Assembly: GCA_963840965.1 (NCBI GenBank)
Contig: CAWJAW010000002.1
Span: 205,645 to 269,644 of the forward strand
Reading direction: 5' to 3'
From: an uncultured Bacteroidales bacterium
Lineage (GTDB): Bacteria; Bacteroidota; Bacteroidia; Bacteroidales; VadinHA17
DNA length: 64,000 nucleotides
Shown: piece after piece, positions 60-5,450 of the stretch
How the letters are laid out: every line of letters begins with the position of its first letter
How positions within the stretch are numbered: the stretch's first letter is position 1
Notes under the pieces: model-generated
What the model saw: only the letters and a program-made list of their open reading frames with translations
Databases searched by the model: none
What the model was told of the DNA's origin: nothing
Program-made: the position numbers and the translations under genes

Positions 60-3032
60 TTACATCTTCAGTCCCTTCTTTTTAGTTGTATCATATACCA
101 GGGCTGTTGAAACGAAAATCGAAGAGTAGGTCCCCACAATGATTCCTATGATCATTGCAAAGAGGAAGCCTCTGATAGTTGTACCGCCGAAGAAGAACAT
201 AATAACAAGAACCAATATAGATGCGATACCTGTATTCAATGTGCGGCTGAGGGTGTCATTCAGAGCCAGGTTCAGCACCTCCCTCATCGGACGTTTCCTG
301 TGCATTGGAATAAATTCCCTGAGACGGTCAAAAACCACAACCGTGTCATTTATTGAATAACCTATCACTGTAAGAATTGCTGCAATGAACGACTGGTCGA
401 TCTCCATCGAGAATGGCATTATGCCCCACAGCAGGGAATAAATCCCCAGAACAACCAGTGTGTCATGTATTGTAGAGGCAACTGCTCCCATACCATACTG
501 CCAGTTCTTAAACCTCACAAAGATGTAGAGAAACATTATTATTGTGGCAAAAATGACAGCCATTACTGCCCTCGACTTTATATCTGCAGCGATCGTTGGA
601 CCAACTGTCTCGGAACTCTGCCTGTATTTCGAAAGGAACACATCTTTTGTCACATTGCCCGGGACCATGTCCTTCAATCCTTCGTAGAGAAGTGTTTCGA
701 CCTCATCATCCACTCCGGTCTCGTTTATTTTGTATTTGGTGGTTATCCTTACCTGATCGTCGGAACCGAAAGTAACAACCTGAGGTGCTTCACCGAAAGC
801 ATCTGAAAGCCTTGAGGCAACGTCGGCCGTATTCACGCTTTGATCAAACCTGATTACATATGTACGCCCTCCCGCAAAATCGATACCAGGGTTCAATCCC
901 CTTACAACCAGCGATACCAGTCCAATAACCATTATGGCTATAGAAATGCCATAGAAGATCTTCCTTTTCCCGATGAAATCGATCTTGGTATTTTTCAGGA
1001 TATTGGCAGTCATCTTTATTGAGAATGTAAGCTTTGTGTTACGCTTAAGCTGCCATTCATAAATGAGGCGGGTGATATAGATCGCGCAGAACAGCGATGT
1101 AAAGATACCTATTACGAGAGTGGTTGCGAAACCCTTGATCGGGCCTGTTCCAAAAACATAAAGTATGACACCTGTAAGGAGGGTTGTAAGGTTCGAGTCG
1201 AGGATGGCCGAAAGGGCTCCTTTATAACCGTCGGCTATGGCAAGCTTCATCCCTTTGCCCGCCCGGAGTTCCTCCCTGATCCTTTCGAATATCAGTACGT
1301 TGGCATCAACCGACATACCCATAGTGAGGACAATACCTGCGATACCCGGGAGGGTGAGTATTGATCCCAGGGAAGCAAGAATTCCCATGATAAGGAATAT
1401 GTTTGCCACAAGTGCTATATCGGCAATTGTACCTGCACTGCGGCTGTAGTAGAAAATCATGTAAGCCAGCACTATTATGAATGATATGATGAACGACACC
1501 ATACCGGCATTGATGGCTTCCTTTCCAAGAGTCGGTCCCACAACAGTATCGGATACTATCCTTGCAGGGGCGGGCATTTTCCCCGATTTAAGAATATTGG
1601 CAAGGTCGTCTGCCTCTTCAATGGTGAAATCACCTGTTATCTCGGTGTTTCCTCCTGTAATCTCGTTGACTACCCTCGGGTATGATCTTACGTAACCATC
1701 AAGCAATACTGCAATGCAGCGGTCTACATTGTCGCGTGTCATCCTGGCCCATGTCTTTGCTCCTTCGGCATTCATGGTAAAGTCAACCTTAACTTCAGAA
1801 CCGGTTACTCCGGTGGTTGGTCTGGCGCCCGTGATAACGTCGCCTGTAAGCGGGGCCCTTCCGTCACGAGTGGTGATCTTTATGGCATGAAGTTCATAAA
1901 GTGTTCCGCTCGGATCATATTTATAAGGGTTCTGGCTCCAGCAGAAGAAAAGGTCGCGCGGGAAAAGTGCCTTAATCTGGTTCATTGACAGGTAACGGTT
2001 AACCTGGGCCGTGTCGATGCCGGCGGCAAGTCCGACCATGCTCGAAGGCAATGGTTCTCCCTGTTCAGTAACCCGCGGACTGAGTACTCCGAAAAGTGGA
2101 TTCTGGACATTGAACTCCTCACGGGTATCAGCTACGGCCAATCCTGTATCCTGGCTTATCAGGTCCTCAAGTGACGGACTCCCCGCAGTAGTGTCAGCAG
2201 GTAGTGATAATGATTCACCGGCTGTAAGGGTAGTGTCGGTACTGAGGGTGTTGGCTTCTATTTCCCTGAGCAGGTTATTTGCCTGGATTAGGTAATTGAT
2301 TATTTCAGTGTTCTCATAGGTTTCCCAGAATTCAAGGTTTGCCGTTCCCTGAAGCAGTTCCCTTACCCTCTGCGGGTCATCCTGCCCGGGCAACTCTATA
2401 AGTATATTACCTCTTGTGGAAAGGCGCGTAATATTAGGCTGCACTACCCCGAAACGGTCGATCCTGGTGCGGAGAATGTTGAATGAATTTGATATGGCGC
2501 TCTCGACTTCTGTGTCAAGAACATTCAGGACATCAGCATTTGAGGAGTTGAAGTTTATTCTGTCGCGAAGCTCCACCGTGCCGAAGATTGCAGCCAGCCT
2601 GGCGTTGGGATCAATTTCCTCGAAAGCCCTTCCGAAGAGGTTAAGAAAGTCGGCTCCTGCCTGTGTCTGGTATTGTGTCTTTGCACGGGCAAGAGCTTCA
2701 TTGAATGTCTTGTCGGGATTGTAGTTAGAGAGAGCTTTCAGAATGTCTTCAACCGAAACCTCAAGAATAACGTTCATCCCGCCTTTCAGGTCAAGACCGA
2801 GATTCATTTCTTTTTTCTGAACTTCCTTGAAGGTGTATCCCAGGTAACTCCATTTTTCCTTAGGCAGGGCTGATAATGAATCGAGGTATTTCCTTTGTTT
2901 CACCATGTCGCCTTCTGCATATTCCCGGGCGTCTTTCCTGACTTTCCAGGTTGCACCGGTAAAAGAAAGCTGGTATATCGATACCAGAGCCAGTGCAATT
3001 GCCAGAACGATAATAGCTGCTTTGTTTTGCAT
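60..3032 (-). CDS. secDF: Protein translocase subunit SecDF (fused)
   Basis: 990 aa; LGLDLKGG, RIDRFGV, VGPTLG, GMSVDANVLIFERIREE (SecD half); GIDFAGG, GYSINDTVVVFDRLRE (SecF half). Confidence 0.97.
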   Translation of the reverse strand: MQNKAAIIVLAIALALVSIYQLSFTGATWKVRKDAREYAEGDMVKQRKYLDSLSALPKEKWSYLGYTFKEVQKKEMNLGLDLKGGMNVILEVSVEDILKALSNYNPDKTFNEALARAKTQYQTQAGADFLNLFGRAFEEIDPNARLAAIFGTVELRDRINFNSSNADVLNVLDTEVESAISNSFNILRTRIDRFGVVQPNITRLSTRGNILIELPGQDDPQRVRELLQGTANLEFWETYENTEIINYLIQANNLLREIEANTLSTDTTLTAGESLSLPADTTAGSPSLEDLISQDTGLAVADTREEFNVQNPLFGVLSPRVTEQGEPLPSSMVGLAAGIDTAQVNRYLSMNQIKALFPRDLFFCWSQNPYKYDPSGTLYELHAIKITTRDGRAPLTGDVITGARPTTGVTGSEVKVDFTMNAEGAKTWARMTRDNVDRCIAVLLDGYVRSYPRVVNEITGGNTEITGDFTIEEADDLANILKSGKMPAPARIVSDTVVGPTLGKEAINAGMVSFIISFIIVLAYMIFYYSRSAGTIADIALVANIFLIMGILASLGSILTLPGIAGIVLTMGMSVDANVLIFERIREELRAGKGMKLAIADGYKGALSAILDSNLTTLLTGVILYVFGTGPIKGFATTLVIGIFTSLFCAIYITRLIYEWQLKRNTKLTFSIKMTANILKNTKIDFIGKRKIFYGISIAIMVIGLVSLVVRGLNPGIDFAGGRTYVIRFDQSVNTADVASRLSDAFGEAPQVVTFGSDDQVRITTKYKINETGVDDEVETLLYEGLKDMVPGNVTKDVFLSKYRQSSETVGPTIAADIKSRAVMAVIFATIIMFLYIFVRFKNWQYGMGAVASTIHDTLVVLGIYSLLWGIMPFSMEIDQSFIAAILTVIGYSINDTVVVFDRLREFIPMHRKRPMREVLNLALNDTLSRTLNTGIASILVLVIMFFFGGTTIRGFLFAMIIGIIVGTYSSIFVSTALVYDTTKKKGLKM

Positions 3033-3086
3033 TTCTCTCTAATTTGGATTATTGAGGTATTTTTCCGAATATTCTTTATTGAGGCG

Positions 3087-3094
3087 CAAAGATA
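3087..3094 (-). promoter_or_regulatory. Bacteroidota -7 promoter element for secDF
   Basis: TATCTTTG on minus strand matches TAnnTTTG, ~55 bp upstream of the secDF ATG. Confidence 0.7.
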
Positions 3095-3145
3095 TTAAAT
3101 TTTTGCAAAAACATTAAATATTAACAGGGACATTGCAATGCAGTG

Positions 3146-3511
3146 CCACGCTTTAAACCATTGCACTCGTGACAGGACCGGGGAATAATCAATTTCTGGG
3201 ACAGGCAGTGCAGAATTGGAAAAGCTACTCCTGATAATGCACTGCCCCTTGAAGGGGATCCCGCATCCCGAAGAAAACCGGGATGCGGGATGACATGGTT
3301 CAAAATAATCATAGGGGGTGAGGCCGCGGCGAGAAACAAAATTTTGCCTTGGCATTTCAGTTCTCTCGCCGCGGCCTCACGCCCACCAACATAAAAGGCG
3401 CATGTCATCCCTCGCCGGTATAAACTACGGTTAGATAATCCTTCTTCCTTGGCTGCCTTTCAAAGCGGCTCGCCAATGATCCAGCTATAACGAGGCGAGG
3501 GATCCCATCAA
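3146..3511 (-). other. Candidate structured RNA or non-autonomous palindromic element, copy 1
   Basis: Stems 3204-3212/3238-3246, 3258-3270/3279-3291, 3287-3297/3401-3411, 3318-3334/3364-3380, 3407-3416/3494-3503. Stem extensions are G-U on the minus strand. No credible ORF. Confidence 0.55.
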
Positions 3512-3541
3512 AAATATTAACAGGGACATTGCAATGCAGTG

Positions 3542-3907
3542 CCACGCTTTAAACCATTGCACTCGTGACAGGACCGGGGAATAATCAATTTCTGGGACAG
3601 GCAGTGCAGAATTGGAAAAGCTACTCCTGATAATGCACTGCCCCTTGAAGGGGATCCCGCATCCCGAAGAAAACCGGGATGCGGGATGACATGGTTCAAA
3701 ATAATCATAGGGGGTGAGGCCGCGGCGAGAAACAAAATTTTGCCTTGGCATTTCAGTTCTCTCGCCGCGGCCTCACGCCCACCAACATAAAAGGCGCATG
3801 TCATCCCTCGCCGGTATAAACTACGGTTAGATAATCCTTCTTCCTTGGCTGCCTTTCAAAGCGGCTCGCCAATGATCCAGCTATAACGAGGCGAGGGATC
3901 CCATCAA
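3542..3907 (-). other. Candidate structured RNA or non-autonomous palindromic element, copy 2
   Basis: Identical to copy 1 shifted by +396. Confidence 0.55.
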
Positions 3908-3949
3908 AAATATTAACAGGGACATTGCAATGCAGTGTCCCTGTTAATA
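3906..3949 (-). terminator. Intrinsic terminator of the efflux operon
   Basis: Hairpin 3911-3949 (18-nt arms, one mismatch, 3-nt loop) followed on the minus strand by TTTTT (3910-3906), ~20 bp after the TolC stop. Confidence 0.8.
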
Positions 3950-3968
3950 AACCAGATAATATCAACCT

Positions 3969-5450
3969 TTACTCAAGTAACTTTTCAAATTCGGTTTCAA
4001 GAGGCTTCCTGTTAACAAAATCGTATAATGCCAGTGAACGGATATTGTAGTAGTAACTCCAGTAGTTCTGAAGCGCCTGAATGTACTGCCTTCTGTTCTG
4101 GTCTTTCTTGGTGTCGGCGTTGTTCAGTTCAAGGATGGCGATCTTCCCGATAAGGAACCTTTGTTTTGTCACCTCGTACATCCTCATTGCAACTGTATCC
4201 GATTTTGCCGCAACTGCTACCTGTGCTCTCTGCAGGTTAAACTGCTCAACATCGAGGATGAGGTTCTGCTCGAAATCGACCAGCGCCTGATCAGATGTCA
4301 CCTGTGCAAGTTCAAGGTTTGAAACAGCCATCTTGTATCTTCCCCTTCCCAGACCCCAGTCGAGGATTGGTACAGTGACTCCCAGCCTGATGTTCTGCTG
4401 CTGGTTCGATTGGGCATAAGCCAGGTTGAAATCAGAATCCTGATCCCTTGTTCCGAATGAAGCAATAAGATTCGCATTCAATCCTTTTTCTGCTTTAGCC
4501 TGTGCCACACTGCTCTGGGCTGTCATTACCGTCAACTGCTGCTGAAGTATTTCGGGATTATTTGCCCTGGCCAGTTCAAGCACTTCCTCCGGGCTCACCT
4601 GAAGTTCGGGAATCTCTGTCGGGATTATGAGTTCCAGCTTGACATTCTCATTAAAACCAAGAAATGACTTAAGCCTGATCTCCCTGTCGCGGAGGTTCAT
4701 TTCGGCTTCCCTTCGTTGTGTTTCAGTATTGAGCCATGTAAGCTGTAGTTCAAGAAGCTCGTTCTCTGCAATAGTACCCAGCTCAAACCTTCCCTGGGCA
4801 ATCTTGTAAAGAGTGTCGGCGTTGGCAAAGTTCATCTCCGCTATCTGCTTGTTGCTTTGGGCAAGGGCAAGAGAAAAGAAATACATTACCGCCTGGGAAT
4901 GAACACCTTCAATATTTGACAGATAATTCTGCTTTGCTGCTGAGTACCTCAGGGGCTCGGTTTTCTTCTGCCATTTCAGCGAGTTATACCTGAATAGAGG
5001 TTGTGTAAGCCCTATACTTATCGGCACCGTAATAAAATTCCTGGAGTCTCGTTCAAAATCGTTCTCAAGGGTAAGATCAGAGTCCAGAGATATGGTACCA
5101 CCGGTAAGGCCAATATTCTGTGACAGAGACAATGAACCGAGGTTACGCATAATATTGGTGGATTTGTAATCCCAGCTTTCCGTTCCGGAATTCCAGACCC
5201 TTTCAAATGCAGTGCTGTAATATGGTGTAGTTCCCGTAAAAGTCAGCGATGGCCGGTATTCTGCCTTGAAAGTACGGTACTGCCAATAGCTTGCGCGGAA
5301 CCTGTTCTTGGCCATCAGGGCATTCGGCGATTGTTCCTCTGCCAGTTTCATGACTTCATCAAGCGTCAGTCTCTTCAGTTCCTGCGAATATGAATTCCTA
5401 ATCGGGAACAGCAGCAGAACAGCTGCCGTCATTAACAAAATCTTCTTCAT
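3969..5450 (-). CDS. TolC-family outer membrane efflux protein
   Basis: 493 aa; signal peptide; LTLDEVMKLA, LTQPLFRYN, RFELGTI, VTVPILDWG, RFLIGKI (two OEP repeats). Confidence 0.9.
   Translation of the reverse strand: MKKILLMTAAVLLLFPIRNSYSQELKRLTLDEVMKLAEEQSPNALMAKNRFRASYWQYRTFKAEYRPSLTFTGTTPYYSTAFERVWNSGTESWDYKSTNIMRNLGSLSLSQNIGLTGGTISLDSDLTLENDFERDSRNFITVPISIGLTQPLFRYNSLKWQKKTEPLRYSAAKQNYLSNIEGVHSQAVMYFFSLALAQSNKQIAEMNFANADTLYKIAQGRFELGTIAENELLELQLTWLNTETQRREAEMNLRDREIRLKSFLGFNENVKLELIIPTEIPELQVSPEEVLELARANNPEILQQQLTVMTAQSSVAQAKAEKGLNANLIASFGTRDQDSDFNLAYAQSNQQQNIRLGVTVPILDWGLGRGRYKMAVSNLELAQVTSDQALVDFEQNLILDVEQFNLQRAQVAVAAKSDTVAMRMYEVTKQRFLIGKIAILELNNADTKKDQNRRQYIQALQNYWSYYYNIRSLALYDFVNRKPLETEFEKLLE

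Follow-up and report, generated by a model that had tools for sequence, protein, structure and literature searches.

REP and BIME repeats of enterobacteria are intergenic mosaics of palindromic modules, with individual REPs of 20 to 40 bp. IS1397 and ISKpn1 insert in the loops of REP palindromes, and CIME-type elements, from work on Streptococcus thermophilus ICESt1, are said to be att-flanked remnants of integrative elements; the 3′ end of a tRNA gene is a classical att position. Integron attC sites carry R″ and R′ core sites (RYYYAAC...GTTRRRY) and extrahelical bases and belong with the IntI integrase. We know of no transposase that makes a 38-bp target duplication. Two papers (PMC3733652, PMC3184786) deal with REP and BIME elements.

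Here, we analyzed a stretch of 64,000 nucleotides (the window) from the genome of an uncultured Bacteroidales bacterium (GCA_963840965.1; referred to as G000), whose assembly is contiguous (10 contigs, 4.06 Mb), and compared it with a collection of 212 genomes of the same genus. Tandem Repeats Finder reported a single array at positions 3116 to 3937 of the window, with a period of 396 bp, 2.08 (about 2.1) copies, 100% matches, no indels, and a score of 1644. A repeat search located three exact copies of a 30-nt direct repeat (DR; AAATATTAACAGGGACATTGCAATGCAGTG) starting at 3116, 3512, and 3908, so the layout is the DR30-366-DR30-366-DR30 with identical copies that an initial annotation of this DNA had described. 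On the plus strand, the first DR (3116..3145), which consists of the 5′ arm, the loop, and 7 nt of the 3′ arm of a hairpin, is joined to the native left flank and followed by the first copy of the 366-bp insert (3146..3511); the second DR (3512..3541) forms the unit-to-unit junction; and the second insert (3542..3907), which matches the first without a mismatch or an indel, leads to the third DR (3908..3937), which runs on into the remainder of the hairpin. The two units are identical at 396 of 396 bp, a two-copy state that is read from the assembly alone.

The third DR is also the only one that completes the inverted repeat (3911-3929/3931-3949; 19-nt arms, 95% complementary, 1-nt spacer). 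Both genes flanking the array are encoded on the minus strand, on which the complete hairpin (3911..3949) folds with −27.4 kcal/mol (z = −6.3; 0 of 200 shuffles were equally stable), with UUUUUG after it; for the two truncated copies, stability is no greater than that of shuffles (z = 0.17 and −1.28). Inverted repeat search and folding thus agree with the earlier claim that the last DR alone restores the hairpin, which has no second occurrence in G000. It lies 20 nt past the stop codon of an outer-membrane efflux protein (OEP) gene and is the putative intrinsic terminator of an HlyD-MacB-OEP operon; a simple consensus terminator scan did not have it among its calls, so the label “terminator” is one that we infer from its fold, its position, and its conservation in relatives.

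Pfam confirmed the secDF and tolC-type neighbors that had been named for the array. The downstream neighbor on the minus strand is a secDF fusion gene (63..3032, minus strand; 990 aa; SecD_SecF_C, 8e-83, with SecDF_P1_head and Sec_GG). Its upstream region (3033..3115, minus strand) holds a block, GAGGCGCAAAGATATTAAA(T/A)TTTT..., that is recognizable in every relative inspected (15 relatives' loci) and would be the secDF promoter; this assignment rests on TATCTTTG on the minus strand, which we take to be the Bacteroidetes −7 motif TAnnTTTG. The upstream neighbor is the OEP/TolC-type gene (3972..5450, minus strand; Pfam OEP, 1.1e-36; stop codon 3969-3971), which is preceded by MacB/FtsX and HlyD genes according to Pfam. 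As previously noted, none of the 46 window open reading frames (ORFs) of at least 100 aa matched an integrase, transposase, or reverse transcriptase in Pfam, and the unit is non-coding; the ORFs that fall within it have no Pfam match.

At the same position, the sister species G015 carries one unit between 38-bp direct repeats (CATTAAAAATTAACAGGGACATTGCATTGCAGTGTCCC), with a period of 355 bp, in flanks about 90% identical to those of G000. Empty sites, in which nothing but the plain hairpin separates the conserved block upstream of secDF from the OEP stop codon, were found in seven relatives: G031 (on two contigs), which is as close to G000 as G015 is, and the more distant G033, G108, G005, G011, G088, and G065. 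The palindrome at 3911-3949 of the window recurs in G015, G031, G033, G108, G005, G088, and G011, and in eight further members of the genus the same spacer is filled by other, unrelated short repeats. The single unit of G015 and the empty sites together indicate that the 366-bp segment was inserted and that a single-copy state exists; judged by these sequences, it went into the 3′ arm of a conserved hairpin that was already there, much as the initial annotation had proposed. The full unit, with its unique left part, was found in 2 of the 212 genomes (G000 and G015), at this locus only. The local tree joins G015 with the empty-site G031 (support 84/92), a grouping that, if true, would call for a precise loss or a second gain; an AU test does not reject the grouping of G000 with G015 (p = 0.109; the other AU p was 0.088). 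The hairpin itself, AGGGAC-TTGCA-N-TGCAA-GTCCCT (window 3911-3949 and the orthologous sites L024, L028, L029, L031, L042, and L043), is kept even where the flanking genes are just 74 to 77% identical. Such conservation exceeds what a plain terminator needs, and the hairpin may therefore also be a protein-binding site.

Comparison of the G000 and G015 inserts places the insertion and the duplication at different times. The inserts differ at 25 of 293 alignable columns, with a further 103 gap columns; the G015 insert is without the long G+C hairpin of G000 and contains 34 additional bp. In the left part that is unique to the locus, 8 of 58 positions (14%) differ; divergence at third codon positions of the adjoining 150-bp gene segments is 0.14 and 0.20, and divergence at four-fold degenerate sites over 1.3 kb on each side is 0.24 and 0.40. 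The palindromic core differs at 17 of 235 columns (7%), which is below the neighboring third codon positions. Since the G000 copies are identical and the G000 and G015 inserts have diverged, the insertion is old and the duplication young; on these sequence divergences, the insertion is about as old as the split between the two species and the duplication very recent. The three DRs of G000 share two substitutions (AAATATT and GCAATGC) that G015, G031, G033, and G108 do not have, and DR identity has shrunk from 38 to 30 bp by erosion at both edges in G000. Parallel mutation is an implausible source of the common substitutions, and homogenized DR centers with eroding edges point to recurrent exchange between DRs.

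The left 68 bp of the insert (3146-3213) are unique to the locus, with no occurrence beyond G000 and G015 among the 212 genus genomes. BLAST and alignments show the remainder (3214-3509) to be homologous to a dispersed palindromic family, with matches at 13 other places in G000 at 71 to 85% identity. The dispersed copies that had been suggested as a BLASTn check therefore exist for this core, but the full unit occurs at no other locus. About 290 bp of the insert is, on these alignments, a diverged member of a mosaic palindromic family of MITE/BIME-like kind, relatives of which were found in other genus members and in MAGs whose titles read Bacteroidales, Rikenellaceae, or Bacteroidetes. Alignment of the window unit with the family is limited to about 3214 to 3509, and the unit is without both of the family's terminal inverted repeats. 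No match to the unit was found in phage or plasmid collections, and a JGI metagenome pattern scan for its unique part returned 0 matches; with the unit at one locus only and no match in these sets, there is no evidence that the 396-bp unit itself moves. The earlier view of a non-autonomous element thus holds for the kinship of the core with a dispersed non-autonomous family but not for the unit as a whole.

Inverted repeats and folding place a first hairpin at 3257-3292 of the insert and a long G+C hairpin at 3314-3384, with further stems at 3287-3297/3401-3411 and 3402-3416/3494-3508. The insert folds with z = −6.4 on the minus strand and z = −7.7 on the plus strand, and equally good folding of both strands is expected of DNA palindromes. 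In a search of Rfam with the unit and four family loci, matches were sub-threshold only: microRNA models scored 31 to 38 bits against cutoffs of 88 to 137, and the best E value was 0.0057 (a microRNA family, 31 bits against an 88-bit cutoff). The stems of the first hairpin have canonical arms in 70 of 89 strand-contexts, conserved in sequence and not covarying; variants are few and mostly break pairs, with almost no compensatory change, and some loops hold inserts of about 70 nt. Modules have been gained and lost across the family, including short forms without the long hairpin and the next module, and copies lie in either orientation relative to their neighbors. These traits fit DNA-level palindromic repeats of the MITE/BIME-like kind better than an RNA gene. 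In some copies (for example, C2:16142-16242), the loop of about 30 nt in the long G+C hairpin is reverse-complemented, a flip-flop between 21-bp inverted arms; in others, the loop is unrelated.

Further occurrences of palindromic repeats were recorded outside G000 or beside the family. In G116 (C33:222-910; L097), two diverged cores that belong to one subfamily are neighbors at a distance of 379 bp, both with an unusual 70-nt loop in the first hairpin and with differing modules; by its sequence, the pair resembles an older tandem duplication that a family member underwent in another species. Near-identical 31-mers of the family stems (window positions of about 3253 to 3340) are present in contigs from metagenomes of soil, bioreactor, digester, and bovine origin; eleven runs share an equal fraction of 0.17, and in X9, the one run among them that was aligned, the summed contig depth reaches about 600 at 3270-3304. 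Another repeat, of about 110 bp (L008:1017-1133, at about 15.6 kb of C2 in G000), occurs in many genus genomes, with dozens of copies per genome in G015, G031, G033, G108, and G080.

The dispersed family resembles MITEs in being small (full members of about 420 bp), non-coding, intergenic, multi-copy, and strongly self-complementary, with terminal inverted repeats of about 19 bp (CCTGCTCTTTATWCRCATC) and a 4- to 5-bp target duplication. The duplication is read from one clean empty site: G031 is empty where G000 has a family copy at about 24.1 kb of C4. For copies at 16 kb of C2, 391 kb of C5, and 480 kb of C2, five relatives gave no clean empty-site comparison. Unlike a MITE, the window unit has no terminal inverted repeats and is bounded by a target duplication of 30 bp in G000 or 38 bp in G015; the core has its 13 other places in G000 and occurs in other genomes, the full unit being confined to one locus. 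No cognate autonomous IS with the same ends, that is, no inverted pair of end motifs 1 to 3 kb apart, was present among the sites listed in G000. The C4 copy occupies the loop of a small palindrome (CCTCCGG-TGCAA-CCGGAGG) with its short duplication, as IS1397 and ISKpn1 do in REP palindromes, whereas the window insertion is in a 3′ arm with a 38-bp duplication. This copy is the one case of family insertion into a palindrome loop, and so the one instance in the family of the palindrome targeting that had been proposed. Nine dispersed family copies in G000 were tested for a long DR at their flanks, and none has one.

With REPs and BIMEs, the locus shares intergenic mosaics of palindromic modules, frequently located downstream of operons, and tandem arrays that vary in copy number, and G000 has several BIME-like arrays and two RAYT-like Y1 genes; it differs in that the modules of the window are much longer than REPs and that the RAYT-like genes are flanked by palindromes other than those of the insert family. 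The latter genes came from the HUH/RAYT and IS110 check that the initial annotation had suggested: G000 has no IS110 and two dissimilar, single-copy Y1_Tnp (IS200/RAYT-like) genes (C4:77607-77948 and C9:295888-296229; 83 and 82 bits; L102 and L103), the flanking palindromes of which are unrelated to the insert family and share with it only an 11-nt chance match. One of the two is flanked by 54-bp tandem arrays of CCGTCGGCTGAAGCCGACGG-type palindromes, and BIME-like arrays of this type lie at C4:78088-78746, C2:658256-658907, and C2:677350-677967. As in CIME-type elements, the DRs copy part of the target, presence is polymorphic, and units have accreted in tandem; unlike them, the window unit is 10 to 100 times smaller and sits at a single locus, with no second target and no integrase known for the site. 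DRs of 30 to 38 bp and empty sites in seven relatives fit an att-flanked element but are not specific to site-specific recombination. An integron attC site was considered and rejected: TATTAAC...GTTAATA fits 5 of 7 positions of the consensus on each side (by eye), the nearly perfect stem has no bulged bases, the DR stops before the G|TT point, and the window encodes no integrase.

Tandem arrays are a recurrent feature of the G000 genome. Tandem Repeats Finder listed 17 arrays with a period of at least 100 bp genome-wide, at least 8 of which are non-coding, with 87 to 100% identity; several consist of REP-like palindromes. As arrays that are old and diverged cannot stem from misassembly, local amplification of palindrome-bearing spacers is a real habit of this genome. 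Only two arrays reach 100% identity, the one in the window (2.1 copies) and one with 2.2 copies of a 452-bp unit at the 3′ end of tRNA-Phe(GAA) (C2:14046-15045; L104:847-1846). In the latter, each unit contains an 84-aa GIY-YIG ORF (Pfam, 7.9e-15) and ends in a T-arm copy interrupted by a 34-bp palindrome, and the DR of 96 bp comprises the last 17 nt of the tRNA and a terminator-like hairpin; at the orthologous tRNA-Phe, G015 has a 6.7-kb element with a tyrosine integrase. A third array, 2.7 copies of a 173-bp unit with 98 to 99% identity (C5:391209-391683; L082), begins inside the first-hairpin loop of a family copy, with the first unit alone completing the hairpin, just as a single copy does in the window array, and lies about 110 bp from a small GIY-YIG ORF (C5:391794-392024); G080 has a plain short-loop hairpin at this site.

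The account toward which we lean is that the window array arose when an older single insertion was recently duplicated in tandem at its site. In the lineage ancestral to G000 and G015, as the comparison of relatives shows, about 360 bp of non-coding DNA was inserted into the 3′ arm of the putative terminator hairpin, which stands between the HlyD-MacB-OEP efflux operon and the presumed secDF promoter, with duplication of about 38 bp of the target (the 5′ arm, the loop, and part of the 3′ arm), so that both the promoter-proximal flank and a complete terminator were kept. The DRs would then have recombined repeatedly, by unequal exchange or replication slippage, with their centers homogenized and their edges decaying, and one such exchange in the G000 lineage would have produced DR-X-DR-X-DR, recently so, given that no substitution separates the two copies. 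As G015 has one unit between DRs, exchange between existing DRs suffices to explain the second copy in G000. For the insertion itself, we favor a single illegitimate event at the hairpin, for instance a template switch or the repair of a break, over the normal transposition of the family, because the latter gives duplications of 4 to 5 bp and not of about 38 bp; at a hairpin that stalls synthesis, a repeat element could have been copied in, synthesis resumed upstream, and the hairpin copied again. Cas1-type repeat duplication and target-primed reverse transcription were also considered as sources of a long duplication and were dropped, as nothing supports them. The unit would then behave as selfish or neutral structured DNA downstream of a terminator. 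This history is favored by the frequency with which intergenic DNA with palindromes forms tandem arrays in G000. Counting against it are the 38-bp duplication set against the family's 4 to 5 bp, the grouping of G015 with G031 in the local tree, a core more conserved than third codon positions, which could mean function rather than junk, and the second perfect array at tRNA-Phe, which could reflect an active process common to both arrays, or a habit of the assembler, instead of chance exchange. The pattern that the initial annotation had tied to simple local duplication, one unit in relatives with neither an empty site nor dispersed copies, is largely seen: G015 has one unit and the full unit is not dispersed, but empty sites exist.

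That the second copy is an assembly artifact or a minority or variable state, with DR-X-DR as in G015 being the true or predominant structure, is in our view unlikely. The unit-to-unit junction has no read support, and the contigs compared come from other samples only: 23 Logan contig runs were listed, all from other samples or strains, the best of which holds 0.41 of the words and none of which spans the array, and 4 of the 23 were aligned, to window positions 2500-3541 only. Contigs identical to G000 (run X2) end inside the first DR at 3136; in X1 (a 459-nt contig) and X9 (a 480-nt contig with 41 differences), the left flank runs into the unit. Both of the 100%-identity arrays of the genome, moreover, hold just over two copies. 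By our reasoning, a single copy bounded by 30-bp DRs offers no k-mer or read path from the end of the unit to its start, so an assembler would need real junction reads to write the second copy; the contiguity of the assembly and the older, diverged arrays of like architecture elsewhere in G000 also argue against an artifact. Quite unlikely, in turn, is the reading put forward initially, in which a 396-bp non-autonomous circle carrying an att-like copy of the terminator was integrated twice, or as a rolling-circle dimer, by a recombinase acting in trans that may also excise it. The DR-X-DR structure with partial similarity past a perfect core (in G015, ...GTCCC GCTT--TAAACCAT versus ...GTCCC TGTTAATAAACCAT) does resemble attL and attR, presence is polymorphic with precise empty sites, the unconstrained tree sets the empty G031 beside the filled G015, cycles of excision and re-integration would likewise homogenize the DRs, and the GIY-YIG unit stands in perfect tandem between 96-bp DRs at a tRNA 3′ end. 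Yet the unit is confined to one locus in two genomes of the genus, with no match in the phage, plasmid, or metagenome pattern searches; the hairpin is unique in G000, leaving no other targets there; the G000 and G015 inserts have diverged like their surroundings, with no sign of recent independent arrivals; the window encodes no recombinase, the genome has no IS110, and its Y1/RAYT-like genes stand beside unrelated palindromes. The single copy in G015, finally, makes a double or dimeric integration unnecessary.

We regard it as very unlikely that the insert is a structured element with a function, be it as an RNA or as a DNA scaffold that binds protein, which is under selection and whose duplication was adaptive. 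Such an element would affect termination or secDF expression, and in its favor are the 7% divergence of the core next to 14 to 20% at third codon positions, the strong folding scores, and the conservation of the hairpin across species whose flanks are just 74 to 77% identical. Against it, both strands fold equally well, Rfam matches do not rise above noise, stems vary by breakage of pairs with nearly no compensation, whole modules are present in one species and absent from the other, as with the long hairpin and the 34 extra bp of G015, and family copies take either orientation to their neighbors; in RNA run X15, from another organism, contigs lie on secDF only, none on the unit. It is equally improbable that the window, tRNA-Phe, and 173-bp arrays are products of one active process. 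On that reading, which we hold with little confidence, tiny DR-bounded cassettes would excise in circular form and either re-integrate or become amplified at sites that contain hairpins, driven in trans by a recombinase or nuclease that the host or a helper element supplies; if true, there would be a class of integrative elements of less than 500 bp that use terminators and tRNA ends as att sites.

Under the local duplication of an older insertion, the insert and its second copy amount to fairly ordinary bacterial repeat dynamics, palindromic repeat DNA combined with tandem duplication, apart from the long target duplication. The locus would matter more if that target duplication were the signature of a dedicated mechanism, because, to our knowledge, no bacterial transposase or integrase system has been described for elements so small. 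In the annotation of repeat-rich Bacteroidales MAGs, arrays of this kind are not to be taken for new genes. On this reading, the locus provides an example of palindromic repeat DNA colonizing a terminator while sparing both the terminator and the next promoter, and of how a short pair of DRs lets a locus expand, contract, and evolve in concert.
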